Source: a virus. From it: DNA of 64,000 nucleotides. Shown one piece after another: positions 4,853 to 32,006 of this stretch (the first letter of the stretch is position 1; every line of letters begins with the position of its first letter). The notes under the pieces were generated by a model. It was given only the letters and a program-made list of their open reading frames with translations, made no database searches and had not been told where the DNA came from. The position numbers and the translations under genes were made by a program. The stretch spans positions 4,624-68,623 of IMG/VR virus record IMGVR_UViG_3300030099_007267. One strand, given 5' to 3'.

Positions 4853-6336
4853 TAATTTTTCTCCATTACAAACAATAATTGTTGTATTGCAAACTTTGGC
4901 TTTGGATACCGTATCTTGGGCAGGAAATAGTGTTGCTTCCTCTTCCGAGCAGTCTTGCTGGATTTGGCAAGGCCAAACAATATCGTCAGTAGATCGTTGA
5001 CGGTGCCCTTGTTGTACGTGTGGCATTGATCAAGTATCAGTTTGAACGATACCCTCACGTCTTCCGGAAGATACCTAGAACTCCACCGGACTTTTTCAAT
5101 TGTCATTAATTGTTTTCTGGATGGTGTCCCGCCTCTCCAATGATCGTCAACCCATTTCTTTGGTGGAGCACAAATACCTGACGATCGAAGAACAGATAGC
5201 AAACTCATTACATAGGAGTCCATCGCCTGAAAAGCAACCGCAGGAGGCATCTTGCGTATATAGTCCCTTTCCAACTCTTCTGGACAGAGCTTCACCAATT
5301 CATCCTCATATTCTTTCTCCTCCCTCGTCAGTACTTCCCCAAGCTTCTCAGGGTTGTTGAGACAATGGATGTTAAATAGAGAGTGCGGATCAATGATGTA
5401 CGCAACCTCTTTACCTGGATGACAACGCAGAACTCTTCCTACTTCCTGAACAAACCTTACACGCGCCCCAACAGGCCTTCTGAGGCACAACCAGCGCAAC
5501 CAAGGCATGTCGACACCTTCTGCCAGCAAGGAGACGTGTACGAGGCATTTTAGGCCTCCTGTGCGCAACTCTTCAATCAGGTCGTCTCTTTGCTGTCGTC
5601 TCATTTTCGAATGGATGGCAGCAGACTTGATACCATATCTATTAAGGTAACCAGCGTAGCTTTCAGCATCATCAATATTCAAAGCCGACACAACGCCCGG
5701 TCCCTCCATCTGAGAGATTAAACGATGACAAACATCGTCAGCATCCGAAGACCCAGTACCATCCCAATGAACTAGCTCCCACGGTACAATTACTCCATCA
5801 TTCAAAGCATCTGCCGCGCTGTATCTGTAAATCACTTCGTCCCACAAAGTCAGTGACTCGCGGTCGTCTGACCTGTATGGAGTGGCCGTAAAGCCAATAG
5901 CACACGCTGGATTTAGGTCTTCCCAAGAGTACTTAAAATGTTCCCCCTCCGTCCCGTGAACTTCATCACCAATCAGCATAGCACACTTAATACTCTTCGC
6001 GATTGTCGGGGTTGAAACGAAAGTCGTGACTACGACTTTTTTGGTCGTGTCCTTTTGATCCGAATAATACACCCCAACATTCTCCGCACCACAACGCACA
6101 GCGATAGTCTTTGATAGTTGACGAATTAAGTTCTGCCTAGGAGCTACGACAACGATCTTGTGGTCGGGTCGTAACTTCTTCAGGCCCTGAAACACTAACT
6201 CAGCCAAAAGCACAGATTTTCCGGCTCCCATAATCGCTGAGATGATTGGTTTTTTACCAGCCTTTAAAGCGTCAATGGCAACAGGGAGTGCTTCCTGCTG
6301 CCATCTTCGCGGTTTCCAAGGGGCATTATCCCACAT
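4852..6336 (-). CDS. superfamily 2 (DExH/ResIII-like) helicase
   Basis: MGAGKS, DEVH, TATP, LAEGVD, QEVGRVLR. Confidence 0.92.
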   Translation of the reverse strand: MWDNAPWKPRRWQQEALPVAIDALKAGKKPIISAIMGAGKSVLLAELVFQGLKKLRPDHKIVVVAPRQNLIRQLSKTIAVRCGAENVGVYYSDQKDTTKKVVVTTFVSTPTIAKSIKCAMLIGDEVHGTEGEHFKYSWEDLNPACAIGFTATPYRSDDRESLTLWDEVIYRYSAADALNDGVIVPWELVHWDGTGSSDADDVCHRLISQMEGPGVVSALNIDDAESYAGYLNRYGIKSAAIHSKMRRQQRDDLIEELRTGGLKCLVHVSLLAEGVDMPWLRWLCLRRPVGARVRFVQEVGRVLRCHPGKEVAYIIDPHSLFNIHCLNNPEKLGEVLTREEKEYEDELVKLCPEELERDYIRKMPPAVAFQAMDSYVMSLLSVLRSSGICAPPKKWVDDHWRGGTPSRKQLMTIEKVRWSSRYLPEDVRVSFKLILDQCHTYNKGTVNDLLTILFGLAKSSKTARKRKQHYFLPKIRYPKPKFAIQQLLFVMEKN

Positions 6337-7082: not shown

Positions 7083-9968
7083 ATGACACAAAAAACTCAC
7101 TGGATCCAAGAAGTGAAAAGTCGGTATTCGTTGGAGAGTATCGCTTATCAGCTTGGAATGAAAACAACCGGACGTAACGCCTTTGGGCCGTGTCCCTCCT
7201 GCAATGCACAGAAGAGAGGAGATCACGACAAAAGAGCACCGTTAGCTTTTTTTGTCCCCTTGGGTAGCAAGGAAGCCAGATGGCAATGCTTCTCTTGCGG
7301 AGACAAAGGAGATATGATCGATCTCGTTTCTTACAAGTTCAATGGAGTAAAGGGTAGCCAAGTTGGCGACTGGACTGAGATAAAAAACTTCTTCAAAACC
7401 CACGAGTTCACCGATATTCGAGTGATCGACAAACCAAAATCCAAGATTCCAAAAAAGGATCTGAAGAGACTTTGGTCAGAGGGAGTGGTCGGAAACCCTA
7501 TCGACGGAACCGCTCGTATCGACGTACAACAATTCTTTAAAGATCGAGGACTAAATCATTACTACATTGATGAAGGCTACATATTTGATATAAACTTTCC
7601 CTTTCAAGAACTGGAGAAAGTTATTACATCATCCGGAAAGCCTATGCCCTTTTGGCCTGCTGGATGGGCGTACAGCTATCCTATTGCAATTCCTTTGTTC
7701 GATGCCAATGGTACCTTCTGTTCTTTTCAGGGTCGCGCCATCCGAAAGCAAGAAGGTAAGCCCAAGACAATGTGCCCGGCCGGGTTCTCGATGGATGGGT
7801 TGTTCTTCGCCAATACAACGATGCGACAATTCCTACTGAAGGAATACAACAGCAATCGCTTTTGGATTGTTGAAGGAGAGATGGACTTTCTAGCGATCAC
7901 CTCCAAGCAAGCCAATGAGCCAGTGATGGGCATAAAAAATGGGTCGTTCAGTGCGTTCGATCACATCGCCTTCCCAGCAGGGGCCGAAGTCATCATTGCT
8001 ACTCACAACGACACTGCCGGAAACGAATATGCAAAGAAAATTGCTGTTCGGATCGCTCCACACAAACCTAAGCGCATCTTGCTTCAGGATGGAGATATCA
8101 ACGATTTCATTAAGGACGGTAACACCTTTCAAGACTTGGTTGGGAAAATACAAGATTACCCAGACTACGACAGCGTTTCGGGAGAGATGGCGATAAGAAT
8201 TATGAAAGATCAATTCTTTCGTATGGAAAATGCCAAACGTGCCGAACGTCAGAACTTGATGGATGATTTGATCGATCAAACAGAAGCGATCACAGCGGCG
8301 TTCAAGACCAACAGAGAAGAAGCTACGAAGATATTTACACGCATCAAAAACCTTCACGGTTGTGGAGCTATTGCCAGTAAAATGCTACAAGGTATCAACA
8401 GCCGCCTTCAATCCTATGAATCAGCCGCAGCGGATACTCTCTTGAATACTCCCACAGAAATAGCCACAGTTCAAGGCCCAGACCCAAGCGTAGAACTGCT
8501 TCGTAAGCCCATTCGAGCCAAAGGTCAGATCGTTGGGTACGGTGCGCCTCTTGCACTAGAAGCCAACATCCAACGCATCCTGACAAACGATAGACGTTGG
8601 GCTGGACGGCTTCGATACAATAAAATGAAAGGCGAAGTCGAGGTCGACGAAGAGTCCCTGAAGGCAATCCACGTAACAGAATTTATGATTTGGTTGCAGG
8701 AGAATTACGAAGGACTTCGACTTGACCCCTCTGCGGTTGGACGAGTAATGAACCAAATGGCAGAACGAAACTACGCCTACCATCCTGTCCAAGAAATCCT
8801 CACCGACTGGTGGAAAAACGTTGACCTCAGCGAAGCTCCAGACCACGCTCGACCAGAACATCTATTTACATATTACTTTCGAGCCGAGAGCAAGGTCGAC
8901 GAAAAGAAGATTGCAAAAGGTGGTATCAATCAGAAGTTGCTCAATGAAGCCTACGGACGTATCTTCTGTCGTGGCTTCGTTGCTCGTCAGTTTTTTCCTG
9001 ACTGCATCAGACGAGGAAAGTTTGACTACACCCCAATCGTCATTTCCCCTGCACAAGGTATCGGAAAAGGTAAGGCGCTTGAATCACTCGCAATCGAGCC
9101 TGAGTTCTTCCACCGTGGTAATCCAAACATAGACAAGAAGGACACCGAGATTATGCTCTCTGGGTGCTCTGTCTTTGAGTTTGAGGAGTGCGTCACGTTT
9201 ATCGAGAACCCCTTCACGAAAGTGAAGATGTTCCTGACAAAGTCATCGTTCAAACTTCGAAAACCATACGGAAAAGGCATGGAAGATATACCAGCCAGCG
9301 TTGTTTATGTCGGGTCAACCAACGAAGAAAGCCTTGACTTTCTGGGTGACCCCACAGGTTCTCGACGTTTTATGTCTATGATTGTTGGGGTCGGTGGTGA
9401 TCTACGAGTCGAGGAACTGAGACGCGATCTGAAATATATCTACGCCAGAGCTATGCACTCCTTCTACGGTACAGGTGAGTACGCAAATACTCAATATCAT
9501 CCAGAAGACAATCCAGAAGGCGTTGGACTTCCCAAAGGGTTTAACCTTGATTGTCGCAAAACAGGAAACAACAAAGCTTACCTAGAGATGCTTCCAAACG
9601 GCAAACAGTATCTCGAATGGCAAACCAGATCAAACGCTCGCTTTGCTGCAATGGATCCCTGGATACCATACGTTTCAGATTACTGCGAGGAGGTTTGGAA
9701 AGATTACCACCGAGCAAAAAGAGCAATGTTGGCTGACGCTGAAAAATTACTCTTCATCAGCGTTAAGACCCTTCTGGACAATGTCCTGAAAATACCAGCA
9801 ATGAAACAGGACCGGAAAGCATCTAAGAGAGTCGGAGAGGTGTTGATACAGGTAGGACTTAAACCTTCTGGGCAAAAGTGGCACGGTAAGAAGAAGGTCG
9901 CTGTCTGGAAAATACCAATGGGATTATTTAAAGAACCAACCCTTGACGAACTAAGCAAAGGAAGATAA
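7083..9968 (+). CDS. primase-helicase: Zn finger + TOPRIM + VirE/VapE-like ATPase
   Basis: CPSC/CFSC..GD.IDLV; IVEGEMD, HNDTAG, DIND; QGIGKG Walker A, RKPYG, GSTN, DPTGSRRF. Confidence 0.9.
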   Translation: MTQKTHWIQEVKSRYSLESIAYQLGMKTTGRNAFGPCPSCNAQKRGDHDKRAPLAFFVPLGSKEARWQCFSCGDKGDMIDLVSYKFNGVKGSQVGDWTEIKNFFKTHEFTDIRVIDKPKSKIPKKDLKRLWSEGVVGNPIDGTARIDVQQFFKDRGLNHYYIDEGYIFDINFPFQELEKVITSSGKPMPFWPAGWAYSYPIAIPLFDANGTFCSFQGRAIRKQEGKPKTMCPAGFSMDGLFFANTTMRQFLLKEYNSNRFWIVEGEMDFLAITSKQANEPVMGIKNGSFSAFDHIAFPAGAEVIIATHNDTAGNEYAKKIAVRIAPHKPKRILLQDGDINDFIKDGNTFQDLVGKIQDYPDYDSVSGEMAIRIMKDQFFRMENAKRAERQNLMDDLIDQTEAITAAFKTNREEATKIFTRIKNLHGCGAIASKMLQGINSRLQSYESAAADTLLNTPTEIATVQGPDPSVELLRKPIRAKGQIVGYGAPLALEANIQRILTNDRRWAGRLRYNKMKGEVEVDEESLKAIHVTEFMIWLQENYEGLRLDPSAVGRVMNQMAERNYAYHPVQEILTDWWKNVDLSEAPDHARPEHLFTYYFRAESKVDEKKIAKGGINQKLLNEAYGRIFCRGFVARQFFPDCIRRGKFDYTPIVISPAQGIGKGKALESLAIEPEFFHRGNPNIDKKDTEIMLSGCSVFEFEECVTFIENPFTKVKMFLTKSSFKLRKPYGKGMEDIPASVVYVGSTNEESLDFLGDPTGSRRFMSMIVGVGGDLRVEELRRDLKYIYARAMHSFYGTGEYANTQYHPEDNPEGVGLPKGFNLDCRKTGNNKAYLEMLPNGKQYLEWQTRSNARFAAMDPWIPYVSDYCEEVWKDYHRAKRAMLADAEKLLFISVKTLLDNVLKIPAMKQDRKASKRVGEVLIQVGLKPSGQKWHGKKKVAVWKIPMGLFKEPTLDELSKGR

Positions 9969-12777: not shown

Positions 12778-13177
12778 CTTTATTCTCAATTTTTTTCGTT
12801 GTTTTCGACTTGTACAAGGCAATGTAATCTGAAATTAAATTCCAGTATTTGCTCAGGTTTTCCGACATCCCATCGCTCCAAATAATCACACCTGTCCTCG
12901 GATTAAGTTTTCCAATGTCGCCATCATAATATGCCACTGGTACGATGTATCCCTCTTCCTCACCTCGATTGTACAGGTCTAAATCAGGAACGGGAGCTTC
13001 CAATGCTGATTGCGGTATCACATGCCACGGAACTAGATCGGAAACCAGATCGTCATCTGAGGACTCCCAAATTATCTTCATAAGCTGAACAGTTTGCTCC
13101 GAAGATAAACCTGAGAGGGTTTCTCCGAGAGCTTCGTTCAGAAACTGAAGGATTTTAACTTTTAATCGTCTACTCAT
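12770..13177 (-). CDS. hypothetical protein
   Basis: 135-aa ORF overlapping neighbours by 8 nt. Confidence 0.65.
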   Translation of the reverse strand: MSRRLKVKILQFLNEALGETLSGLSSEQTVQLMKIIWESSDDDLVSDLVPWHVIPQSALEAPVPDLDLYNRGEEEGYIVPVAYYDGDIGKLNPRTGVIIWSDGMSENLSKYWNLISDYIALYKSKTTKKIENKDE

Positions 13178-14648
13178 CTCTAAATCTCCTTTTTAGAATA
13201 CTAAACGCTGCCGCTGCACACTGAGGCACCACTGAGTTGCCCAAGGCTTTTACACGATTGACTCGGTTGTCCTTGCGCTCAGTAAGGCGAGGGATGCCCT
13301 CCTCCCAACTGCCATCTTGCCAAGACGATGGATTGATTATCTCAACCGATACATCCTTCTCCAAATCTGTAAACCCAGACGGAAGACCCATAAGCGGCTC
13401 AACCCAATCTGGATTTAACTTCCCTGGTAGCCACTCAATAGGCTCTCCAGTCCCACGATGATCATCAGCAGAATACCGACGACCACCAGACTCGATGAAG
13501 CGAGACAACGAATGACTGCCCAACTTGTGTCCATCTCCTCTAACAGGTGTCGGCAAAAGCTCGTTCTGAAAAGCAGGAACATAAGACCCCAACCGAACAC
13601 TATTACCCTTGCGCTTGACCTGAGCACGAATAGAGTGCTCACTGCCTCCATCTTTGTAATCTGTCGACGTTGGAGTAGGCCACATCTTCGATTCTCTCAT
13701 ATCTCTTATTGGATACCCGAACTTCACTTGTTCAGACAAGTTCCCCGGTGGTACCGTTTTTCTCCCGCCCTTGTTTCGCCATTCCTCTCTCTTCTTTAAA
13801 GATTCAGCCGAACGCTCCTGAATGTTCGTTGCGCAAGGAGTCAGCCACATTAGTCTAGGATCTTCTCGTAGATTTCCTGATCGCTGCCTTTTGGAACCGT
13901 CATTTCCTCGATTAAGCTGACGCTCTAAGGCCTCTCCCTCTCGACGTGGAAGATGGTCCATTGTATTCGGAGTATTGAACCAACCAGGCTTACATACTGG
14001 CTGCTCACGAGAATACAATCTATTGCCGGTCGCCATCCCAGCCTTCGGTAGTTTATCAAACGACTGAGGACTGAATAAGTCTATTTGTTGTGGTGCCCAT
14101 TTGGAATTGTTCAGGAAACCAATCTGGTCGTAACCATCAAACAATAGCTCCTCTTTGTGAGCAATAGCCCACCATCTCTCTCGACGATGCCAAGCTCCCA
14201 CATCCGATGCAGACAAGCAGAACCATTCGATGGTCCAACCGCTCTTTACAATCGACTCGGTGACCACATCTAAACCTCGACCAGTAATCGCTGGCACGTT
14301 CTCGAACAAAACAAAGCGAGGGTGCAGGTAAAATGCTGCTAACTCCCACATGTCTAAGAATAGACCAGAACGTGTCCCCTCCTTAATACCCTTGCCGTGA
14401 CCGGCCACACTCAAATCCTGACACGGAAAGCCCCCCACCAAGATGTCAGGGCTGGTAATCTTCATACGTGGAAGGTCGGTTACATCATCGTAGATGGGTG
14501 TACCAGGAAATCGCTTGGACAATAGCTTCTGACAAAATGAATCTGACTCGCAAAACCAAACTGTCTCTGCATTGCCACCTAGAGCATCTATGACACCCAA
14601 GTCCAATGAACCTATACCACTAAACAGTGAGCCTATTTTAACGGGCAT
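13170..14648 (-). CDS. DNA (cytosine-5) methyltransferase with expanded repetitive variable region
   Basis: SLFSGIG, GGFPCQD, FENV, HRRERW, ALGNSVVP; AGGAGG RBS. Confidence 0.93.
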   Translation of the reverse strand: MPVKIGSLFSGIGSLDLGVIDALGGNAETVWFCESDSFCQKLLSKRFPGTPIYDDVTDLPRMKITSPDILVGGFPCQDLSVAGHGKGIKEGTRSGLFLDMWELAAFYLHPRFVLFENVPAITGRGLDVVTESIVKSGWTIEWFCLSASDVGAWHRRERWWAIAHKEELLFDGYDQIGFLNNSKWAPQQIDLFSPQSFDKLPKAGMATGNRLYSREQPVCKPGWFNTPNTMDHLPRREGEALERQLNRGNDGSKRQRSGNLREDPRLMWLTPCATNIQERSAESLKKREEWRNKGGRKTVPPGNLSEQVKFGYPIRDMRESKMWPTPTSTDYKDGGSEHSIRAQVKRKGNSVRLGSYVPAFQNELLPTPVRGDGHKLGSHSLSRFIESGGRRYSADDHRGTGEPIEWLPGKLNPDWVEPLMGLPSGFTDLEKDVSVEIINPSSWQDGSWEEGIPRLTERKDNRVNRVKALGNSVVPQCAAAAFSILKRRFRDE

Positions 14649-16291: not shown

Positions 16292-16336
16292 ACTATCGCG
16301 ACACTGTAACAAGCTGGCTCGTTGTCGCGTGGACTG

Positions 16337-16606
16337 TCATTTGTTGTACTTTCGACGATTGGTCTTTCGAGACACAACCCGAGTGTTTTTGCGGCCATTC
16401 CCACCGCCTTTGCTCAGTGGTCTTCTGTGATCCACTTCCTGAGTGGTCTTCAGCTTCGGTAACCCTCTCCGCTTTCGTGCAGCATTTATCCTGGCACGAG
16501 CACCATTACGAGCAGTTCTATTTTTAATTTGCTTGGGCTTCCCGTGATACTGCTTGTATTCACGTTTGTAATTTCGTTTGCCTGTCTTCGGATCTTTGTA
16601 CGGCAT
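16337..16606 (-). CDS. small HNH endonuclease
   Basis: EVDHRRPLSKGG.N...N.RVVS...NR; GGAGG RBS before ATG 16606. Confidence 0.85.
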   Translation of the reverse strand: MPYKDPKTGKRNYKREYKQYHGKPKQIKNRTARNGARARINAARKRRGLPKLKTTQEVDHRRPLSKGGGNGRKNTRVVSRKTNRRKYNK

Positions 16607-16670
16607 ACTCCCTCCACAACCTACAATATACCACGACACCACACACCCTGCCCACCTTCCTTCACCCAAA

Positions 16671-16722
16671 GATAGTCCTCCTCCTCCTCTGTGCCTGTGC
16701 CATACCATACGTATGGTCTATC
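16671..16722. repeat. GAYAGTCC element A
   Basis: GATAGTCC(16671)...GGTCTATC(16715). Confidence 0.6.
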
Positions 16723-16779
16723 AATGTGTAAAGATTTTGCCGTTTTATTTGCACGTCGGCACCCATATGTAAAGGAAAT

Positions 16780-16898
16780 GACAGTCCTCCTCCTCAGTTG
16801 CAGCCCACGTCCGATACGTTCGGTCTATCAGGCCCGAGATCTCAGGTCTCGGTGCCCGACCTCACTATCATCCGTGGGCTGCTAGGAGGAGGACTATC
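16780..16898. repeat. GAYAGTCC element B (long stem-loop)
   Basis: GACAGTCCTCCTCCT/AGGAGGAGGACTATC and GCAGCCCACG/CGTGGGCTGC stems; internal GGTCTATC at 16822. Confidence 0.85.
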
Positions 16899-16973
16899 CT
16901 CTGTCAAGGGGGTATTTTAGGGACATTTCCTGATATCCCGAGATACAGGGGGCCATAGGGAAAAATTAAGAAT

Positions 16974-17026
16974 GACCAAATTGTGTCCGGTATTTATTTG
17001 GTCTTATATTGTCCATCTGATAAAAT
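16974..17026 (+). promoter_or_regulatory. promoter with two GGWCA-N5-TGWCC-type boxes
   Basis: TTGGTC(16998)-17-TAAAAT(17021); boxes at 16974 and 17000. Confidence 0.65.
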
Positions 17027-17080
17027 GAGTATGTACCTACGGGTTTCATAAGCCCTAACATCCAAGGAGGATATAAAATT

Positions 17081-18979
17081 ATGATTATTCAAAAACAAAA
17101 ACTCTCTCATGTCGAATTGTTCTCGGGCCTCGGTTCTGCTAGCATAGCTCTTAGAAGCGTTTCACCTCTATTTGAAACCGTCGCTTATAGTGAGATTTGC
17201 ACGAAAGCTGAAGCTGTTCGTGCTGTACTCGTTAAAGATGGCGCTCGCAATATTGGAGATCTGACAGATGACTCCAATTGGAGAGATGACAAACGATTGA
17301 AAGATATCGACCTTGTAACGGCTGGATTTCCTTGCCAAGACTTTTCAGGAATGAATAGCAAAGCTCTAGGATGGAATAGCCCTCGCACTCGCTTTGTAAC
17401 AAACGCATTACACAGATATGTTTCACACACTCAACCGAAATATATTGTGATGGAGAATGTTAAAAATCTATTTTGTTCAACCCATATAAAAGGAACAAAG
17501 AGCTTCCTTGACTCCTTCAGTGGATACAGTTGGAATCACGTATCCTTCAATCCTGCCGATTATGGATATATTCAGAGTCGCGGCCGTGTTTACATTCTTC
17601 TTTGTCGTAAAGATGTACCACAAGCTGAACTTGATTTAAATGCTATAGTTGGAATCAAACAACAAACCTTTTCCGATGTTATGGATAAGCGGACTCTGAA
17701 AGACGATGTAAAAGGTGAATATTACCATGTTAAAACACAGTCAAGAATTGAGAGCGCTAAGAAGAGCAATAGATATTGGCAATTAACGCCCCGATCGACA
17801 CGCATGCAAACTATGGGAAGACGATCGATCGACGCGCGCTGCAATCGTTTCAGTTGGGTAAAAGGCAATCCAGACCCTCGTTATTCGCATCGATCCTTAT
17901 CAGTGAAAGAAGCTCTTCGTATTCAAGGCCATTCAAAAATACCCTCTCGCTTATCTTCTGTAAAAGGGTTGAGCCGATCATCATGTTTCATGGCTATTGG
18001 TAACGCTTGGCATATTGGCGCGGCTGTTCAAGTATTGAAGCAACTACCAATTCAAGGATTGCTAGAATTCAAATTCAGACAGTGGGCAAGTAAGTTTATT
18101 CGATGGGATAAGGTTGAAGCTCTCGCACGTCGTAAGACAGCACAGAACATCCGTGCTAGATATCTGATTGAAGATCTTATGACTTCAGGAAGAAGCAGTA
18201 ACAGACGAGCTTTGTTCGCTACCTCATCGTACAAATTTGATAAGAAGGACGGTAAGAAGATCGAGACTCGAGGTGTTTACTTGGCCCCTGCTAAGAGAGC
18301 TAGCCGTCCTAGTGAAGGTATTATTATCAATAGCTGTCCTAACGCTGGAGAGTGTGCAAAAGAGAAGAACTGTTTAATTGGATCGGGAACTATGCCCTTT
18401 CATTCTGATACTCGACAAGCTAAGACACTCTTCTTTTATGGTTACCCTGCTGAATACCTCATTCAGATCATCAGAGAAATTGTTGAGTTTGCACGAAAAG
18501 CTCATAAACGTGGCGACGAGCTACAGGTTCGTTTAAATGGAACTTCAGATATCCAATGGGAGCGCTATCTATATATGGATATGTTAGTGGCTTCTGTAAT
18601 TGGTTTCATTGGCTTCTATGACTATACGAAGAACGGAGTCAATCGGCTATCTAGAATAGAGCAATCTTATCATCTAACATTTTCCGTTAGTGAGGATAAG
18701 AATACTATGAAGAACGCACTTGAATATCTTAAAGCGGGATTCTCAGTGTCAATTGTAACCATTCCAAATGAGCATGACGATATATTGAATTGGGGCCATC
18801 CTCGAGTCTTAGACGGCGAATTGAACGATCACCGACCACAAGATCCCCCCGGATCGGTCGTGTTACTTCCAGCCCGTGGAGAGTTGAGATCTCAAATTGG
18901 TAAAACAAAATTTGTAAAATCCAGATCTTGGGTTGCATGGTTCCTTACTATGGTAGATTCATGTCCAGAGCTAGCTTAG
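17081..18979 (+). CDS. C5-cytosine DNA methyltransferase fused to GP88-like Cys-triad domain
   Basis: N-half ELFSGLG, GFPCQD, MENV, QSRGRVY, IGNAW; C-half YLAPA, CPNAGECAKEKNC, VRLNGTSDI.WE, FYDYTK, YHLTFS; AAGGAGG RBS. Confidence 0.85.
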   Translation: MIIQKQKLSHVELFSGLGSASIALRSVSPLFETVAYSEICTKAEAVRAVLVKDGARNIGDLTDDSNWRDDKRLKDIDLVTAGFPCQDFSGMNSKALGWNSPRTRFVTNALHRYVSHTQPKYIVMENVKNLFCSTHIKGTKSFLDSFSGYSWNHVSFNPADYGYIQSRGRVYILLCRKDVPQAELDLNAIVGIKQQTFSDVMDKRTLKDDVKGEYYHVKTQSRIESAKKSNRYWQLTPRSTRMQTMGRRSIDARCNRFSWVKGNPDPRYSHRSLSVKEALRIQGHSKIPSRLSSVKGLSRSSCFMAIGNAWHIGAAVQVLKQLPIQGLLEFKFRQWASKFIRWDKVEALARRKTAQNIRARYLIEDLMTSGRSSNRRALFATSSYKFDKKDGKKIETRGVYLAPAKRASRPSEGIIINSCPNAGECAKEKNCLIGSGTMPFHSDTRQAKTLFFYGYPAEYLIQIIREIVEFARKAHKRGDELQVRLNGTSDIQWERYLYMDMLVASVIGFIGFYDYTKNGVNRLSRIEQSYHLTFSVSEDKNTMKNALEYLKAGFSVSIVTIPNEHDDILNWGHPRVLDGELNDHRPQDPPGSVVLLPARGELRSQIGKTKFVKSRSWVAWFLTMVDSCPELA

Positions 18980-19078
18980 AGAAGTGGCTTCTGATTATCT
19001 TCTTTATCTTATGGTTACTTGGTGCTATAAGTGAAGGATTGAAGCCCGACAAACCCTGTTAACGGTCTCGAGCGAGGC

Positions 19079-19109
19079 AAGGGGGGAGCTAAGCTCCCCC
19101 TCTTCTTTT
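19079..19109 (+). terminator. intrinsic terminator
   Basis: GGGGGAGCT-A-AGCTCCCCC followed by TCTTCTTTT. Confidence 0.7.
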
Positions 19110-19161
19110 GCGCCTCTCTTATATGGCATAGAACTCGGGGCCCGAGAACCGGACATAAAAT

Positions 19162-19283
19162 GACCTCGCACTATAAAGCCGAGTGTACCGGCCTTATCGG
19201 GGCAGGCCCCGATAGTCCAACCAGACCCAAGGCTGGTTGGGCCAGACACGAGCAACAAAGTGCGAGGTCTATCAGTATGATGT
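19162..19283. repeat. GAYAGTCC element C; direct repeat of element E
   Basis: GACCTCGCACT/AGTGCGAGGTC 11-bp stem enclosing GATAGTCC(19211); GGTCTATC at 19266. Confidence 0.85.
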
Positions 19284-19318
19284 ATGGTTGGGTACCTACC
19301 TACATACTCAAACAATCC

Positions 19319-19374
19319 GATAGTCCTTCTCCTTTGCTGAGGGCGCAGCCCTCACTTCCTGGAGAAGGACTATC
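19319..19374. repeat. GAYAGTCC element D
   Basis: GATAGTCCTTCTCC/GGAGAAGGACTATC 14-bp stem, inner TGAGGGC/GCCCTCA. Confidence 0.9.
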
Positions 19375-19412
19375 ACGGGCCATGGCCGTAGCTGGTTCTC
19401 CGAGAAAGTCAA

Positions 19413-19466
19413 GACCAAAAACTGTCCGGTTCTGTCGGTGATATCTAGGTCGTCCTATGGTATAAT
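19413..19466 (+). promoter_or_regulatory. promoter with upstream box
   Basis: Box 19413-19427; GTGATA(19438)-17-TATAAT(19461) with TG extension. Confidence 0.75.
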
Positions 19467-19515
19467 AGAGATATCAACTAACGGGCCGCCAGCCCTACTA
19501 CACGGAGGTGTAACT

Positions 19516-19785
19516 ATGGCAATGACTAAAACACAACAAGCTCTAGAGGCTTTATTTTTGAAACTTCAGGATCATGACGATGTAATTGATCTGAACAATA
19601 TCTATATCCACTTTCCAGATCACTTTATCAGTCTGCTCTCCTGTTTGGAAATCGTTTCAAATCGTCTCGCTTGGACATACTGCTCACAATATGACGAGAA
19701 TGGTTATATTGTCGATCTTGAATACAAGAGAGATGAGATTTTGAACATCCTTGTCAGTGATGATTTTACCATTCAGAGCCACTAA
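19516..19785 (+). CDS. small acidic putative early protein
   Basis: GGAGGTG RBS; start MAMTK. Confidence 0.75.
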   Translation: MAMTKTQQALEALFLKLQDHDDVIDLNNIYIHFPDHFISLLSCLEIVSNRLAWTYCSQYDENGYIVDLEYKRDEILNILVSDDFTIQSH

Positions 19786-19797
19786 GGAGGTGTAACT

Positions 19798-20136
19798 ATG
19801 GCAATGACAACAGAACAAATCATGGCAACGATAGAACAAATCAAAGATCAGGTTCTAAAGCTAGGCTCATATGATTTTGAGCAAAATCTTGTATCTCATG
19901 CTGATCAATTATCGGAACTTATTTTTCACTGCGAAGAGCTTCAGAACAGCTTCCACCCTGATGATGACGAGTATGAAACACTCGATATTTATATCGGTGA
20001 TATATTGCAGCCGATTCTGGATAAGCTGGAAAAAGACCAAGAAGAATATCTATCTGATGAGTACATCAAAAAGCAAAAAGTTGCTCTTGAAGCAGGAAGA
20101 ATTTGGTTTCAAAAACTTATTGGAGGTGAGCAATGA
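19798..20136 (+). CDS. small acidic putative early protein
   Basis: Same 23-nt RBS/start block as previous gene. Confidence 0.8.
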   Translation: MAMTTEQIMATIEQIKDQVLKLGSYDFEQNLVSHADQLSELIFHCEELQNSFHPDDDEYETLDIYIGDILQPILDKLEKDQEEYLSDEYIKKQKVALEAGRIWFQKLIGGEQ

Positions 20137-20315
20137 GAACATATGTATATATCAAAGTAAAACTTTACCTTAAAGAGGGGCAGACAGAAGACTCAATTCA
20201 AGATATCGTTCAAGAGATGGATTATGATTTTGATCACGATGAAATTGTTGATACCGAGATTAAGGATATCATAGATTATGATATCCCTGAATCCTCTAAC
20301 AAAGGAGGTGAGTAA
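20133..20315 (+). CDS. 60-aa acidic putative early protein
   Basis: GGAGGTGAGCAATGA junction; IVQEMDYDF motif. Confidence 0.8.
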   Translation: MRTYVYIKVKLYLKEGQTEDSIQDIVQEMDYDFDHDEIVDTEIKDIIDYDIPESSNKGGE

Positions 20316-20482
20316 TGACTGTTTGTTTAGTGTGCGGAAGCTCTGATGTACTTATCAAAGCATGGGTCAATCCGAATGATGACAAAGCCGAACCCATCCC
20401 ACTCCCGTGGGACACAGACGCTTGGTGTAACATCTGCGATTGTATCGTCGATCTCAAAGAAGAAGAAGGAGGTAAGCAATGA
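20315..20482 (+). CDS. 55-aa Zn-ribbon protein (not in ORF track)
   Basis: MTVCLVCGSSDV..AWVNPN...AWCNICD...GGKQ*. Confidence 0.75.
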   Translation: MTVCLVCGSSDVLIKAWVNPNDDKAEPIPLPWDTDAWCNICDCIVDLKEEEGGKQ

Positions 20483-20886
20483 GAACCGTTAAAACCTTGC
20501 GCAAAGGGAGCTTCGTTCGGAAGTTCCTCGAGGAGTTTGTGAAGAATCATGAGAAGTACAGAGGGGCTTATTTTTGGCGACCACCGTCTACAGCTTCACA
20601 ACGCCGTAGAATGGAATTCGATCACTGCACCGTTTTTAAGTATCAAGGCGACGTGTACGAGCTTGAACAGAGCTTGGAGTGCTCTTGTAAAAATGTTTAT
20701 TGGACCAGTAGAGTCTTTGTCAATGAGAAGAAGAAGGATATCCGAGTCATCCATAAACTTATTGGTAGCAAAAAACCACCGATGTGGTCAGATGAACTTC
20801 TACCAACCCTAGACACTCCTGAAGAATTTACCGAGAAGTCTTTAGCGCATTTGGAGAGTTTGATAAACAAAGGAGGTGAGCAATGA
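20479..20886 (+). CDS. putative early protein
   Basis: GGAGG RBS, ATGA coupling. Confidence 0.8.
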   Translation: MRTVKTLRKGSFVRKFLEEFVKNHEKYRGAYFWRPPSTASQRRRMEFDHCTVFKYQGDVYELEQSLECSCKNVYWTSRVFVNEKKKDIRVIHKLIGSKKPPMWSDELLPTLDTPEEFTEKSLAHLESLINKGGEQ

Positions 20887-21182
20887 GAGTTAGAGTAAAA
20901 TGGAATTTGACGAATTGTAAATGGTCTGTGTGTGATTGCGAGGGTGTTACCCCTCCGTACCACACTGATTCGATTGTGCTGTTGAATTGTAAGCTACATC
21001 ATCCGTTTGGCCATATCGAGGGCGATGTGTCCACAGGTTCAACACGCTACCAATCTGAATGTATAACCCCTATTGGATTTGTGAATGATAAAAACGAGAT
21101 ACGCTTTGACGCTGAGTGTGTCTTCCTTACTTCATATGAGGGATCCCCCTCAGCCTATGCGAGTGTAACAGAGGACGCTTAG
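20883..21182 (+). CDS. putative early protein
   Basis: GGAGG RBS, ATGA coupling; VRVKWNL...WSV N-terminus. Confidence 0.75.
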   Translation: MRVRVKWNLTNCKWSVCDCEGVTPPYHTDSIVLLNCKLHHPFGHIEGDVSTGSTRYQSECITPIGFVNDKNEIRFDAECVFLTSYEGSPSAYASVTEDA

Positions 21183-21203
21183 AACGTCCCTCACGCCCCT
21201 TGT

Positions 21204-21227
21204 AAGCCCTCTTCGGAGGGCTTTTTT
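21204..21227 (+). terminator. intrinsic terminator
   Basis: AAGCCCTC-TTCG-GAGGGCTT-TTTT. Confidence 0.9.
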
Positions 21228-21229
21228 GT

Positions 21230-21336
21230 ACCTCGCACTGTACGCTCACGGCAGGTCCCAGGCCGATAGTCCAACCAGACCTTGGGCTGGTGGACCAGAC
21301 ACGAGCAACGCAGTGCGAGGTCTATCAGTATGATGC
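21230..21336. repeat. GAYAGTCC element E; direct repeat of element C
   Basis: ACCTCGCACTG/CAGTGCGAGGT stem; GATAGTCC 21265, GGTCTATC 21319. Confidence 0.85.
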
Positions 21337-21367
21337 CCCTGGCTCATCAAAGCAAACTCAGACAAAC

Positions 21368-21509
21368 GATAGTCCTCCTCCTAATGCGCCCTGCCGGGGG
21401 GCCTGCTTCAACTGGACTGTCACGGGCCGTAGGCCCTGGCCGTCTTCATTAGGAGGAGGACAGAATCTGACCTCAGTAAGTCAAGGTCAGAATTTGTCCT
21501 ATGTGTTAG
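21368..21509. repeat. GAYAGTCC element F plus twin boxes
   Basis: GTCCTCCTCCTAATG/CATTAGGAGGAGGAC 15-bp stem; GGACTGTC 21414; boxes 21458 and 21485. Confidence 0.85.
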
Positions 21510-21769
21510 GCTTCTTCGGATTCTTCTTCGTCAGCATAAGCGGACTCGATTCTCTCTGAACACTGAGTACAATAGAGATCGGGCGTTTCCCAATTGATAG
21601 CTGGGGTAAGCTCCTCGTTACCTAACCATTCGCAATCGTCCTCATGAGCCTCCGACTCTACGTCAGATTCGATGTTCTCATTAACGCAGTTAGTACAAAA
21701 CGCCTCACCTTGCCAAACGATGAATTGAGGGTAGCAACCGATAGAACAGTAGCGTTCAAACTTTCTCAT
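21506..21769 (-). CDS. small Zn-binding putative early protein
   Basis: GCYP..CTNC...INWE..LYCTQC..IESAY; start at MRKF (ATGA overlap). Confidence 0.75.
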   Translation of the reverse strand: MRKFERYCSIGCYPQFIVWQGEAFCTNCVNENIESDVESEAHEDDCEWLGNEELTPAINWETPDLYCTQCSERIESAYADEEESEEA

Positions 21770-22077
21770 GCCGCCCCCTTGATCATACAGATAGCTTTGC
21801 ACAAGCTATCTAGATCCGGATCAGCTTCGACCTCTCCAAAGGGGTCGTGGCTAGTCCAAGTCCAAACATGACGACCACCGTAGGTGACGTAAAACCCTTC
21901 TATATTGTTCCCTTGACTTCCCCATTTTAATCTAAGAATGTCGTCACGATAGAATTCGATATAGAGGACTCGCCCATGACATACAGTTTGTTGTTGGACG
22001 AATTTGAATCCAGTAGCTTTTGCAGTGCTACTGAACGTATCGATGATACTTTCGTAAATTCCAAATTCGAAGTTCAT
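21766..22077 (-). CDS. putative early protein
   Basis: GGAGG/AAGGA RBS, ATGA coupling. Confidence 0.75.
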   Translation of the reverse strand: MNFEFGIYESIIDTFSSTAKATGFKFVQQQTVCHGRVLYIEFYRDDILRLKWGSQGNNIEGFYVTYGGRHVWTWTSHDPFGEVEADPDLDSLCKAICMIKGAA

Positions 22078-22259
22078 GCTTCCTTCTCCGCTTCTTTGAA
22101 TACATCAATCTCAGTTAGTTGATCTTTCATGTTCTCGATTTTCACAGCTAAAGCCTTCATTCCGATCTCATTTAAATACTTTGTAGCTTCTTCTAATTGT
22201 TCAGAGGCAATAAAAATGCATTCCTCTGTTGCCATCATTGCATGCTTAACATATGCCAT
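22074..22259 (-). CDS. small helical putative early protein
   Basis: GGAG RBS before ATG 22259 (MAYVKH). Confidence 0.7.
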   Translation of the reverse strand: MAYVKHAMMATEECIFIASEQLEEATKYLNEIGMKALAVKIENMKDQLTEIDVFKEAEKEA

Positions 22260-22275
22260 GGTCTTTACTCCGTTA

Positions 22276-22413
22276 GTTAGTTGATTTTGAACAGAGCTTC
22301 CCATAGAGGCCCTATGCCCCTCGGTCCGCCCTGCAATGTTCTGTGCTTTACTCATACCTATATTTTATCTGATATCAGGCACAATTGAAAGTCAGAATAT
22401 GTCCGGAAAAATA
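22276..22413 (-). repeat. 138-bp promoter/leader repeat, copy 1
   Basis: 6 differences from 23278-23415; contains box, TTTCAA-17-TAAAAT and about 100-nt leader. Confidence 0.95.
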
Positions 22414-22502
22414 TCTCGCTAGGGCCGGCCCTACCGGAGACATAGAGCGACCATATTCTGTCCTTGACACGAGAAAGAGCTTGATATCATCGGCCCGAGG
22501 CC

Positions 22503-22636
22503 GATAGTCCTTTCAAAGGTGGGCCGGCAGGCCCGGCCTATTCTGTATTGGACTGTCACGGGCCAGCGTGACCCACCTTTAAAAGGACAGAATCTGACCC
22601 TGAAAAGTCAAGGTCAGAATTTGTCCTATGTGTTAG
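22503..22636. repeat. GAYAGTCC element G plus twin boxes
   Basis: GTCCTTTCAAAGGTGGG/CCCACCTTTAAAAGGAC stem (16/17); GGACTGTC 22550; boxes 22585 and 22612. Confidence 0.85.
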
Positions 22637-22959
22637 CTGTAGTACTCTAACATGTGATCGTTACTGCAGACAGGAACTGTAGTCCACCCAGCCTCATCGA
22701 TGTTAAACTCCCAGCCTCCATTTGTCATGGAGGTAACGCGCTCCGCTATGAGTGGCAGCAAGCACCACCAATCAACGTCTTTGAACTCCTTACGGATAGC
22801 TTCTTCATCGAAGCTATCCATTCCCACACGTGATTCAATCAGTAGTTCCATAGCTACCACTCGACAAAGACACCCGCGCTCCTCGGCCTTCTCCATCACG
22901 TACGCATCAAGAGAAGGAAGAATCAAATCCTTATATTCTTGTGATACTTCCCAACTCAT
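22633..22959 (-). CDS. acidic putative early protein
   Basis: 108-aa ORF, ATGA coupling. Confidence 0.7.
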   Translation of the reverse strand: MSWEVSQEYKDLILPSLDAYVMEKAEERGCLCRVVAMELLIESRVGMDSFDEEAIRKEFKDVDWWCLLPLIAERVTSMTNGGWEFNIDEAGWTTVPVCSNDHMLEYYS

Positions 22960-23258
22960 GGCTTCACCAAGCAGCCGCTATTATTCGCAAGCTCACGACT
23001 GGATTGACATGTGTTTTTATAGACCAGTTTAGCTAGCCTCGACGATATCTCATCAAGATTGTTTTTAACTTCCTCGATATCTCTTGTAGCATCGTTAACG
23101 CATTGACAAAACCCTTCATGAGGGTCGCTTGTTGTGTCAGCCATTGCGATCCATGCGAGGATCCAAGACACGGTTTCAATCTGGCCAGCTAGGCCTTCTA
23201 AGGTTGCAATTGCCGCTTCGACCTTCGCGAGGTCGTCTTTGAAAGTACGTACTTTCAT
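22956..23258 (-). CDS. coiled-coil putative early protein
   Basis: AGGAG RBS before ATG 23258 (MKVRTF). Confidence 0.7.
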   Translation of the reverse strand: MKVRTFKDDLAKVEAAIATLEGLAGQIETVSWILAWIAMADTTSDPHEGFCQCVNDATRDIEEVKNNLDEISSRLAKLVYKNTCQSSRELANNSGCLVKP

Positions 23259-23277
23259 GGTGTAACTCCTGTTACTT

Positions 23278-23415
23278 GTTAGTTGATTTTGAACAGAGCT
23301 TTCCATAGAGGCCCCATGCCCCTCGGTCCGCCCTGCAATGTGCTTTGCTTTACTCATACCTATATTGTATCCGATATCAGGCACAATTGAAAGTCAGAAT
23401 ATGTCCGGAAAAATA
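23278..23415 (-). repeat. 138-bp promoter/leader repeat, copy 2
   Basis: See copy 1; -10 is TACAAT. Confidence 0.95.
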
Positions 23416-23477
23416 GCCCTACACCCTCGGCCCTATGGAGAGAATAGAGCGGTCACATTATGTCCTTGACAACAAAA

Positions 23478-23539
23478 GATAGTCCCATTTGGCGGCCGCA
23501 GCACACACTGTTGTGCTGTTGGGACCAAATGGGACTATC
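23478..23539. repeat. GAYAGTCC element H
   Basis: GATAGTCCCATTTGG/CCAAATGGGACTATC perfect 15-bp stem; inner CAGCAC/GTGCTG. Confidence 0.9.
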
Positions 23540-30073: not shown

Positions 30074-30480
30074 TGAAAAAGAAGAAGTTTTGTCCGAGTG
30101 AAGAGCAAGTCCAGATTCGACGTAGTGCGAGGAGCTTGTATAACAGTGGGATGTATTTGGTTGGAGAGTGGGTTGCTAGGATACCGACGTTAACGCTATC
30201 TAAGTGGAGAAATTGGGAGAGCACCAAGGGTTTCATGGACTGGTGGTCAGAGCTTCTTCCAGAACACGGGGGCGTGACCTTATCAGATTTGAAGGCATTG
30301 GAGTTTGAGGCGAACAAGAGCTTGATGCGAGCGATGATGGAGGGTGACTTGGCCGCGACTAAGATTGTTATCTCGATGGTATCTCAGGCAAGAGAGGCTG
30401 AGAAGATAACGGACAATGGTATGGAGGAGTGGTTCGACTCTTCCACCGAACAGAACGGTTGGACACAAGAGTGGAATTAG
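30073..30480 (+). CDS. putative terminase small subunit
   Basis: HTH-like N-half, GDLAATK helix, directly before TerL. Confidence 0.65.
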   Translation: MKKKKFCPSEEQVQIRRSARSLYNSGMYLVGEWVARIPTLTLSKWRNWESTKGFMDWWSELLPEHGGVTLSDLKALEFEANKSLMRAMMEGDLAATKIVISMVSQAREAEKITDNGMEEWFDSSTEQNGWTQEWN

Positions 30481-32006
30481 AAGCTATTCTCAGTGATCCA
30501 AAGCAATTCATACCTCGTTTGCGGTTTGAGGATGCGGATGCAAACTTGTCTTATTTCCGCAATCCATTTTCGGAGCAAGTTGCATTGATCGAGGCTCTAA
30601 ACGATCCTGAAGTAAAGACAATAGTTGTGCTCAAACCTCGTCAGATTGGAATAACGACAGCGAATTGTGCTGACACTTGGTATCGGACGTTTACAGCGAA
30701 GAAGCCTTTGAGAACGATTGTTGTTGCTGACCACAACAAAACAACAAAATCAATATTCAAAAAGTTCTGTACGTACTTTCATCATCTTCCCAAGACCTTA
30801 AAGGAGTCAAATCCATTTAAGATCAATCAAAATGATAAAACACTTGTATCTGAGCGAACGGATGCCCTGATCGACCATATGACTGCGCGAGGAGACACGC
30901 ACGGTCGTGGTTGGACATATCAAAGATTTGTGGCAGAAGAGTTGGCTTTCTGGCCGCATCCAGAAGAAGTCTGGTCGGGTATCCGTTCGACTCTCCATGG
31001 TGGAGCAGATAGCAAGATTGTAATTGTATCAACTCCCAACGGGCCGGGTAATTTTTACCACGAGCGTGTTTTGATAGCTCAGGAGGCGGAGAGAACGGGA
31101 AACAAATCAATTAAGTTTCTATTTTCGAGGTGGAGTGATCACAGAACATATACATTAACACCTCCAAAAGATTGGGAGCCGAATGAGGAAGAGCACCAAT
31201 TGGGTGAGAAATTTGGTCTTGATTGGGGTCAATTGTACTGGCGACACGAGATGATCTATGGTGTCGAGGGTATGGGGGACAGGAAGTTCCGTCGAGAGTT
31301 CCCACTGACGATTGAAGACGGCTTTCTTGTATTGGAGGGGTCTTGGTTTGACTCAGACTATTTGAATAATCGTTTAGAGGAGCTTCCAGCCTCCGAAAAG
31401 GCGGAGCTTCGTGTATATAGAGAGCCTGAAATAAATGTTGAATATGTAATCGGTGTAGACCCCAGTTGGTGTACAGGTGGAGACTTTGCAACGGCTTGTG
31501 TGATGAGCGAATATGGAGAGCAGGTTGCTGTGTTTTCGACGAACCAAGGTGGCGAGAATCGGTTTGCTTTGGAGGTAAATAATCTGTCTCGATATTACAA
31601 TCGGGCGAGAGTTCTTTGCGAAGCGAACACAGGTGGTGCAGGTCGAGTAGTTATCAGATCGATGTATCAGGAGTCGACCCCAGTGTGGAAGGATACGAAG
31701 GGAAAAGACTGGGTGACGCACAAGGGCAACAAGGAGCTTGCTTACTCTTTTGCGCGTCAGATGGTGAATGGTGATGGGCTTGAATTGAATGATCACCAAA
31801 CGATACAGGAGTTGATGCACGTGAGAGAGGAACGTGGTAGAATAGAGGGTCAGGATGGTTATCATGATGACCACGCGGATGCTTTTGTTTTGGCTGTTTG
31901 GGCGTTGCGTCGTCTACCAGGGTTCAATGGCAAAGAGAGGCACCGTCCACGCTTAAGGCGTGAAAAACGCAACCCTATGGACAAGATTAGGATGAGAACG
32001 CCATGA
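30429..32006 (+). CDS. terL: terminase large subunit
   Basis: LKPRQIGITT, EELAFW, STPNG, IGVDPS, GYHDDHADA; start may be GTG 30471. Confidence 0.95.
   Translation: MVRLFHRTERLDTRVELEAILSDPKQFIPRLRFEDADANLSYFRNPFSEQVALIEALNDPEVKTIVVLKPRQIGITTANCADTWYRTFTAKKPLRTIVVADHNKTTKSIFKKFCTYFHHLPKTLKESNPFKINQNDKTLVSERTDALIDHMTARGDTHGRGWTYQRFVAEELAFWPHPEEVWSGIRSTLHGGADSKIVIVSTPNGPGNFYHERVLIAQEAERTGNKSIKFLFSRWSDHRTYTLTPPKDWEPNEEEHQLGEKFGLDWGQLYWRHEMIYGVEGMGDRKFRREFPLTIEDGFLVLEGSWFDSDYLNNRLEELPASEKAELRVYREPEINVEYVIGVDPSWCTGGDFATACVMSEYGEQVAVFSTNQGGENRFALEVNNLSRYYNRARVLCEANTGGAGRVVIRSMYQESTPVWKDTKGKDWVTHKGNKELAYSFARQMVNGDGLELNDHQTIQELMHVREERGRIEGQDGYHDDHADAFVLAVWALRRLPGFNGKERHRPRLRREKRNPMDKIRMRTP

Follow-up and report, generated by a model that had tools for sequence, protein, structure and literature searches.

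In the abstract of the survey of polyvalent proteins by Iyer et al. 2017 (PMC5512222), the theme is the joining of a DNA methylase to other conflict domains, and a term search in this paper found gp88, radical SAM, TIM barrel, and Fe-S not mentioned. The family DUF5131, according to PMC9477430, is listed by RadicalSAM.org as a subgroup of the radical S-adenosylmethionine (SAM) superfamily beside spore photoproduct lyase. Both descriptions touch upon a gene located in a stretch of 64,000 nucleotides, here called the window, which comprises bases 4624 to 68623 of the IMG/VR virus record IMGVR_UViG_3300030099_007267. The record has 68,623 bp with a CheckV completeness of 100% and is the genome of a tailed phage. 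An uninterrupted open reading frame (ORF) at positions 17081 to 18979 on the plus strand of the window encodes a protein of 632 amino acids (aa), which is composed of a C5 DNA methyltransferase, a helical connector, and a module of the GP88 family, both modules being assigned by Pfam and PHROGs. With a probability of about 0.5, this protein would be a real and recurrent two-module phage enzyme, in which an orphan C5 methylase is joined to a divergent GP88 module of the radical SAM type that binds an iron-sulfur (Fe-S) cluster, is distantly related to DUF5131, and acts on DNA.

The methylase module occupies residues 1 to 325 (17081 to 18055, plus strand). PF00145 (DNA_methylase) matched residues 10 to 284 with an E value of 3.1e-32 and 112.8 bits versus a cut-off of 22, and the DNA methyltransferase family phrog_116 covered residues 4 to 331. 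In an alignment with M.HhaI (E value of 3.6e-14), the motifs FxGxG, PCQ, ENV, and QxRxR were aligned. The module contains FSGLGS at residues 14 to 19, GFPCQ at 82 to 86 with Cys85, ENV at 125 to 127, QSRGR at 165 to 169, and GNAW at 307 to 310, which we take to be the motifs I, IV with the catalytic cysteine, VI, VIII, and X, respectively. These motifs were invariant in eight of eight aligned fusion proteins. The initial annotation of the region had described a single 632-aa ORF with a complete set of C5 methyltransferase motifs followed by a series of GP88 motifs, and all of these were present in the translation. A restriction partner of the methylase was not recognised by Pfam among the 68 window ORFs. 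The module is an orphan C5 methyltransferase and, judged by its motifs, catalytically complete.

The GP88 module comprises residues 351 to 632 (18131 to 18976, plus strand), and its earlier assignment to this family was confirmed. PF17338 matched residues 397 to 610 with an E value of 1.7e-22 and 80.8 bits versus a cut-off of 24.4 in Pfam, 83.6 bits were reached in the genome search, and phrog_1617, a family with a function not known, covered residues 359 to 614 with an E value of 7.4e-45. NCBIfam gave no match for this part. The GP88 family is large and almost confined to phages. A HMMER search in a library of 1.84 billion proteins yielded 2932 cluster representatives at E ≤ 1e-3, and among the 150 of these 2932 that were listed, the size was mostly 210 to 320 aa. 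The family was found by tblastn in 267 phage records, 238 from Mycobacterium and 11 from Pelagibacter phages, with phages of Caulobacter, Xanthomonas, Roseobacter, and others also represented, while no plasmid record was matched in this search. At 75 of 80 loci from IMG/VR, GP88 was located within ORFs of 225 to 358 aa. The rule for calling ORFs failed at the other five loci, and two of these (L027 and L030) have separate frames for GP88 and the methylase. In a further set of 80 viral loci, open frames of 225 to 373 aa were present at all 80. These counts agree with the earlier statement that GP88 is usually a stand-alone protein. Its description as uncharacterised was also supported, since a literature search by PF17338, or by GP88 together with radical SAM or phage methyltransferase, found no publication on the family. 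The "gp88" of Pseudomonas phage 14-1 (anti-END1, bioRxiv 10.1101/2025.03.31.646159) was rejected as a relative, because it apparently shares only the gene number, as told from the description in that source.

The fusion of both modules is genuine and not an artefact, as indicated by the related sequences. When the GP88 part was used as the query and proteins of 347 to 1106 aa were allowed, 27 proteins were returned, and the architecture PF00145 plus PF17338 occurred in nine protein clusters of 552 to 632 aa from several sources, with 46 to 100% identity over the GP88 part. One fusion cluster was found on seven contigs, the longest of which had 69,007 bp. An alignment of eight fusion proteins displayed unbroken conservation across the junction, with invariant methylase motifs, cysteines, and GP88 motifs. 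The connector at residues 326 to 350 (18056 to 18130, plus strand) is conserved among the fusions and is predicted to form a helix that packs on the GP88 module. A search for recurring fusions or adjacency had been suggested initially, and recurrence of the fusion was found, but a general adjacency of separate genes was not (see below). A scan of genome contigs with the fusion alignment revealed no relative of the fusion. A search in IMG/VR did not recover the nearest stand-alone relatives, with 42 to 52% identity; its best match had 40% identity. A quick tree was made from 60 GP88 domains, and seven fusion and eight unfused rows shared one clade of 15 rows; the tree did not contain one of the fusion rows (P0007), and the inner order of the clade does not separate one fusion event from several.

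For a complex prediction, the protein was split at residue 340, and both parts were supplied with custom 8-row alignments, a 4Fe-4S cluster, and SAM. The methylase and GP88 parts obtained a score of 0.81 versus 0.01 for the best control, with a contact agreement between runs of at least 77% and a partner predicted local distance difference test (pLDDT) value of at least 84. Among solved complexes, 58 of 80 attain this mark, as do 2 of 110 mismatched pairs, and this calibration is approximate for a prediction with custom alignments and ligands. All confident contacts of the first chain came from residues 332 to 340, directly at the cut, and touched the GP88 residues 341 to 345, 457 to 465, and 496 to 505, which shows no more than that the connector helix belongs with the GP88 module. 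The prediction was rejected as evidence for a docking of the methylase core on GP88, because the passing score resulted solely from the connector residues next to the cut.

An AlphaFold2 model of residues 351 to 632, calculated with an 84-sequence alignment, reached a pLDDT of 95.5 and a predicted template modeling score (pTM) of 0.92. It predicts an alternating beta/alpha partial barrel with a regular succession of strands and helices. The module contains YLAPA at residues 400 to 404. In the model, strand 1 is followed by the three-cysteine loop CPNAGECAKEKNC at residues 419 to 431 (18335 to 18373), which is positioned just past the first barrel strand and carries the candidate Fe-S ligands C419-x5-C425-x5-C431, and then by a long helix pair. 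The later strands would end in RLNGTSD (strand 2, residues 484 to 490, 18530 to 18550), FYDYTK (strand 3, residues 512 to 517, 18614 to 18631), and YHLTFS (strand 4, residues 530 to 535, 18668 to 18685), and after a fifth strand, the sixth would lead to DGELNDHRPQDP (residues 578 to 589, 18812 to 18847), all of them encoded on the plus strand. All residues that are invariant in the alignment of 84 members are kept here, namely C419, C425, C431, R484, Y515, S535, D583, and L596, and near-invariant positions are N486, S489, and D490 in RLNGTSD, T516 and K517 in FYDYTK, and G579, R585, and D588 in DGELNDHRPQDP.

Comparison of this model by VIA-align with 48,161 representative chains gave 16 chains at Z ≥ 5, and the ranks 1 to 14 were all radical SAM enzymes. 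These included the pyruvate formate-lyase activating enzyme PFL-AE (3c8f, Z of 6.4, root mean square deviation [rmsd] of 5.2, 180 aligned residues), spore photoproduct lyase (4fhc, Z of 6.2, rmsd of 6.7, 215 aligned residues), ChlB, NifB, the lipoyl synthase LIAS, QueE, and others, followed by GH18 chitinases. When the top 1000 Foldseek matches were re-ranked, the ranks 1 to 24 were also radical SAM enzymes throughout, with the viperin-like chain 9dgw as the best (Z of 6.7, rmsd of 5.2, 168 aligned residues). Beyond GP88 itself, the rows obtained from BFVD at E values of 0.009 to 0.05 included DUF7227 and entries named "Fe-S oxidoreductase" and "Radical SAM family". Searches in the PDB with the GP88 sequence and with the 84-sequence profile returned rows at chance level only. 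A fold class of the radical SAM type is indicated by the model but not proven.

The three cysteines were invariant in 84 of 84 family members and in all eight fusions. Three invariant cysteines, not four, are the usual mark of a site-differentiated cluster. Their spacing among the 84 members was CX6CX3C in 55, CX5CX3C in 24, CX5CX5C in 2 including the fusion protein, CX7CX3C in 2, and CX5CX6C in 1, so the triad C-x5-C-x5-C noted initially is correct for the fusion protein but is not the pattern of the family.

A lead beyond the family came from an Atlas search, which listed after GP88 itself only DUF7227 (0.92), a family on which no publication was found in the literature search, and then DUF5131 (0.75, a lead only). 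A DUF5131 profile was made from 18 aligned sequences of 29 genes extracted from cyanobacterial genomes and one clostridial genome, and these 18 sequences have the cysteine motif CX6CX2C. Alignment of the GP88 profile with this profile by hhalign gave a score of 28.3 and a P value of 0.0031 at a probability of 10%. The greedily extended alignment was colinear over 195 columns with all three cysteines paired. It also paired NGTSD of GP88 with NSMSD (VNSMSD in DUF5131), YTKxP with LTKRP, TFSxSE with GVSVE, and VIDGDxxDxR with VIVGGESxxAR. The controls all scored below 28.3, with 8.1 to 19.8 for 30 column shuffles, 11.0 for the reversed profile, and 14.0 and 19.3 for two methylase profiles. The Pfam model of DUF5131 gave one weak match to a GP88 gene among 50 records (16.3 bits, below the cut-off of 28.9), the fusion protein had no DUF5131 Pfam match at E ≤ 1, and an hhalign comparison of GP88 with a single phage radical SAM ORF was not significant. 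The alignment of DUF5131 with PFL-AE (P value of 8.7e-4) was not used, because its pairing of the C-terminal VIVGGES with GGE, the SAM-binding motif of PFL-AE, does not keep the register of the cysteines; this pairing of GGES and GGE could be a chance motif match or could result from a rearranged topology of DUF5131. The GP88 module probably belongs to the radical SAM type, as an Fe-S enzyme with three cysteines and a distant relative of DUF5131, and it probably acts on DNA.

The surroundings and fusion partners of GP88 were evaluated in the same loci and in the long members of the family. A Pfam tally of neighbours included the nearest 150 of 258 ORFs with at least 130 aa within 3 kb in 71 loci. 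The small terminase occurred nine times, DUF932 six times, DNA ligase three times, the C5 methylase, Radical_SAM, and the 2OG-Fe oxygenase twice each, and ArdA, ArdC-N, and MPTase-PolyVal once each. The small terminase was the most common neighbour because GP88 is located near the genome ends. In the pelagiphage HTVC134P, the GP88 gene is gp3; it is part of the leftmost block and precedes the gene for the RNA polymerase, and the position in Unn EXVC019P is similar. In the Mycobacterium phage Twister, two annotated genes separate GP88 from the right end. The early lytic promoter Pleft of cluster A phages is at the right end, according to PMC5712189. A second recurrent architecture is the fusion of RadC (PF04002) to GP88 in proteins of 426 to 550 aa from four clusters (P0013, P0017, P0018, and P0029). 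Among 98 long GP88 proteins of 558 to 1945 aa, the partners were PF00145 in nine, GNAT in two, and ART-PolyVal in two, with PF13489, PF01555, a T7-type RNA polymerase, and LPD38 as single cases and the rest without a Pfam partner. A PHROGs scan of seven long forms added one ParB C-terminal domain. The remaining 700 to 1700 residues of the long proteins (P0177 to P0261, up to 1945 aa) had neither a Pfam match nor a functional PHROG match in the seven that were scanned.

Evaluation of the radical SAM assignment needs to consider several results that weigh against it. All Z scores were only between 5.1 and 6.7, which is the "middling" range of the tool, and none reached 8. Foldseek versus the PDB gave no match at E ≤ 0.001. 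The canonical motif CX3CX2C is absent, and the spacing in the family varies as C-x(5-7)-C-x(3-6)-C. The hhalign probability for the DUF5131 match was low, as given above, while the comparison of GP88 with a 14-sequence PFL-AE profile gave a P value of 0.12 with a non-equivalent alignment that was not colinear, and Pfam at E ≤ 1 on the 84 GP88 members revealed no link to Radical_SAM (PF04055), Fer4, DUF5131, or another family. BLASTP clustering of six flanking ORFs in 78 loci identified no conserved neighbour that pointed to a pathway, the largest cluster being composed of small ORFs of no known function from 10 of the 78 loci. The fold check proposed initially consequently had a divided outcome, because a partial barrel with radical SAM enzymes as top matches was found, but at these modest scores and with no sequence method reaching Radical_SAM. 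Moreover, the acidic residues D490, D514, D580, D583, and D588 are invariant or near-invariant, which would fit a metal-dependent hydrolase too. GP88 may alternatively be a barrel hydrolase or nuclease of this kind or a DNA-binding module, with no radical chemistry and with cysteines that hold a structural zinc or Fe-S site. The many conserved Asp and Glu residues at strand ends, the missing canonical motif and Radical_SAM signal, and the GH18 chitinases, EAL domains, and xylose-isomerase-like barrels close behind the top matches would agree with this, but the number of invariant cysteines is exactly three, the top 14 and the top 24 structural matches were solely radical SAM enzymes and not full TIM barrels, and the motif match to DUF5131 is colinear, which leaves a non-radical GP88 as an unlikely explanation. 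If the module is a radical enzyme, it may be a DNA repair lyase similar to spore photoproduct lyase, made first after injection to free the incoming genome, which is densely packed, from UV-induced or other damage, with an unrelated methylase next to it. Spore photoproduct lyase provided the longest structural alignment and is the neighbour of DUF5131 in the RadicalSAM.org grouping; the early position of GP88, the fusions to RadC, which one source calls a DNA repair protein, the DNA ligase in 3 of the 150 neighbour ORFs, and hosts that include surface-ocean and soil bacteria point in the same direction. All radical SAM Z scores were, however, within one unit, so that spore photoproduct lyase was not singled out, repair genes were not consistently adjacent, with HhH-GPD in 1 of 50 records and below the cut-off of a model that may miss a divergent glycosylase, and no phage lesion is known to need such an enzyme. 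A function as a repair lyase is improbable on this basis.

Alternatively, both modules may work on the same base. The methylase would produce 5-methylcytosine or hold a flipped cytosine, and a 5'-deoxyadenosyl radical generated by GP88 would elaborate the methyl group or C5, resulting in a new hypermodified cytosine. In favour of this, the physical fusion is kept in nine clusters with a conserved connector, and GP88 and C5 methylase genes are located on the same strand about 0.5 to 1.7 kb apart in HTVC134P, Twister, and the loci L013, L027, L030, and L164. According to PMC5889632, radical SAM genes are present in the thymidine hypermodification clusters of the phages M6 and SP10. The GNAT-GP88 fusions moreover resemble the layout of Elp3, a radical SAM domain plus an acetyltransferase, and Elp3 was among the weaker fold matches (8ptx_C, Foldseek TMq of 0.39, Z of 4.3). 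The split genes nevertheless run in the order GP88 and then methylase, opposite to the fusion (L084, 505 to 3184; L001, 1462 to 4595; L013, L027, L030, and L164), none of the confident contacts in the complex prediction involved the methylase core, and no other known hypermodification gene was present among the other 68 window ORFs, in which Pfam gave no TET/JBP, glycosyltransferase, or thymidylate-synthase-like match. A C5 methylase was found in the flanks of just 6 of 80 loci in the first set and 3 of 80 in the second, 8 of 50 GP88 records contained PF00145 at some position, and 11 of the 12 records with a completeness of at least 90% did not contain it. Since GP88 mostly stands alone, in phages that lack a C5 methylase, a coupled pathway that methylates and then elaborates the base is a minority reading and is quite unlikely. 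The initial suggestion that the fusion links methylation to a further base modification or repair step finds no support as a rule for the family, which is also fused to RadC, GNAT, an N6/N4 methylase, ART-PolyVal, and many regions of no known family. GP88 is only loosely tied to cytosine methylation. The most far-reaching version, in which the GP88 proteins form a new radical SAM branch directed at DNA and are expressed first after infection, and with a fused clade that flips and methylates cytosine and performs radical chemistry on the same base, so that a single polypeptide would carry out a new post-replicative cytosine hypermodification, is similarly doubtful and not to be expected. Finally, an artificial union of two adjacent genes by an assembly error or a frameshift, named initially as the result that would speak against the fusion, was supported by no point, the record being a metagenomic virus contig, and is practically negligible in view of the nine clusters from different sources and of the continuous junction in the eight aligned proteins.

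Of the six split pairs of GP88 and methylase genes, one is from a cultured pelagiphage, one from a cluster A mycobacteriophage, and four are from viral contigs.

In the preferred reading, that of a two-module enzyme composed of an orphan methylase and a radical-SAM-type GP88, the methylase module would methylate the phage DNA at a specific motif, most likely as protection from host restriction. GP88 would be a strongly diverged enzyme of the radical SAM type with a (beta/alpha) partial barrel, and a distant relative of DUF5131. A site-differentiated [4Fe-4S] cluster would be bound by its three invariant cysteines, in the loop that follows strand 1. GP88 would normally act alone as an early phage gene, and this would mean that its reaction does not need 5-methylcytosine. 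The fusions to a DNA methylase, to RadC, to an N6/N4 methylase, and to domains of polyvalent proteins suggest DNA as its substrate. The fusion would simply combine in one polypeptide two early functions that both use SAM and are directed at DNA.

The expression signals of the fusion gene were those described initially, with one exception. A strong ribosome-binding site, the Shine-Dalgarno sequence AAGGAGG at 17064 to 17070 (plus strand), was read from the sequence 10 nucleotides before the ATG. An intrinsic-terminator-like element at 19081 to 19110 (plus strand) is composed of a hairpin at 19081 to 19101 with nine pairs, seven of them GC, followed by the T-run CTTCTTTT. A boxed promoter had been proposed in addition. 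The boxes exist, as copies of the octamer GATAGTCC flank the gene, but a sigma-70 scan listed no promoter-like site on the plus strand within 16300 to 17080. The octamer occurs in 11 copies in the window versus 1.13 expected, and 0 of 100 shuffles attained 11 copies. Ten of the 11 copies are located at 16671 to 23539 between small gene cassettes, flanking the fusion gene and the next cassettes, so that the remark that the gene opens an "island" had a real basis. The octamer is probably a regulator or promoter box of the phage. Upstream of the fusion gene, the divergent intergenic region (16671 to 16898) has two boxes, at 16671 (plus strand) and 16891 (minus strand). This region also contains a long stable hairpin at 16800 to 16883 (plus strand; −55.9 kcal/mol for 121 nucleotides, z of −4.3), which matched neither a tRNA nor an Rfam family. 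Downstream, three boxes at 19211 (plus strand), 19319 (plus strand), and 19367 (minus strand), spanning 19211 to 19374, are inside an intergenic element of about 230 nucleotides at 19200 to 19440. A second copy of this element is present at 21255 to 21510, and each copy follows one of two successive terminators. The copies have a column identity of 75% with core stretches of 90 to 93% and belong to no Rfam family, and the Rfam scan of the whole window also found no family.

Other genes of the window are those of a primase-helicase (7083 to 9968), an SNF2-type helicase (4852 to 6336, minus strand), a large terminase (30429 to 32006), and a portal protein (32003 to 34288), and an exonuclease and a PD-(D/E)XK nuclease are also encoded. 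A second C5 DNA methylase of 492 aa is located at 13170 to 14648 on the minus strand. Pfam covers only its first 169 residues but PHROG profiles cover residues 2 to 485, which indicates a large insert between the conserved halves. With an MT-A70 methylase from the family tally, three DNA methylases were found in the window. About 22% of the phage genome is occupied by a single ORF of 5092 aa at 48038 to 63316 (plus strand). The G+C content of this ORF is 0.34 to 0.40 versus 0.44 to 0.46 elsewhere, and neither half had a Pfam match at E ≤ 0.001.

GP88 is among the larger phage families without a function, is present in hundreds of cultured mycobacteriophages and in pelagiphages, and is among the first genes transcribed. 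The natural fusion to a DNA methylase provides a "Rosetta stone" hint at a DNA substrate. If GP88 is a DNA-acting radical enzyme, this would mean a new chemistry for phage anti-restriction or genome care, and the radical SAM superfamily would be extended to the motif C-x(5-7)-C-x(3-6)-C. If only plain 5-methylcytosine is formed beside an unrelated module, the protein would be an ordinary orphan methylase with a passenger domain.

Compared to the known systems, the fusion protein shares with the M.HhaI-type C5 methyltransferases every conserved catalytic and SAM-binding motif in the standard order, but differs by the addition of the C-terminal GP88 module of about 300 residues. Typical GP88 members are stand-alone proteins of 225 to 373 aa, whereas here the module is joined to a methylase and, unlike other members, carries seven inserted residues between strand 1 and the cysteine loop. 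As in the polyvalent proteins (PMC5512222), GP88 occurs also in very long proteins together with ART-PolyVal, LPD38, and methylases, but the protein described here, known from its sequence, has two modules only. With the canonical radical SAM enzymes such as PFL-AE, viperin, QueE, and spore photoproduct lyase, the GP88 model has in common the predicted partial barrel and the cysteine loop after strand 1, whereas CX3CX2C, a sequence or profile similarity, and identifiable SAM-binding motifs are missing and the rmsd is above 5 Å. GP88 differs from DUF5131 (PF07505, the phage Gp37/Gp68 family) by a long extra helix pair after the cysteine loop and by the absence of the GGES motif, but both are phage-linked families of about 250 aa with an N-terminal three-cysteine motif, and they share the colinear motifs N..SD, TK.P, S.E, and VI.G.....R.

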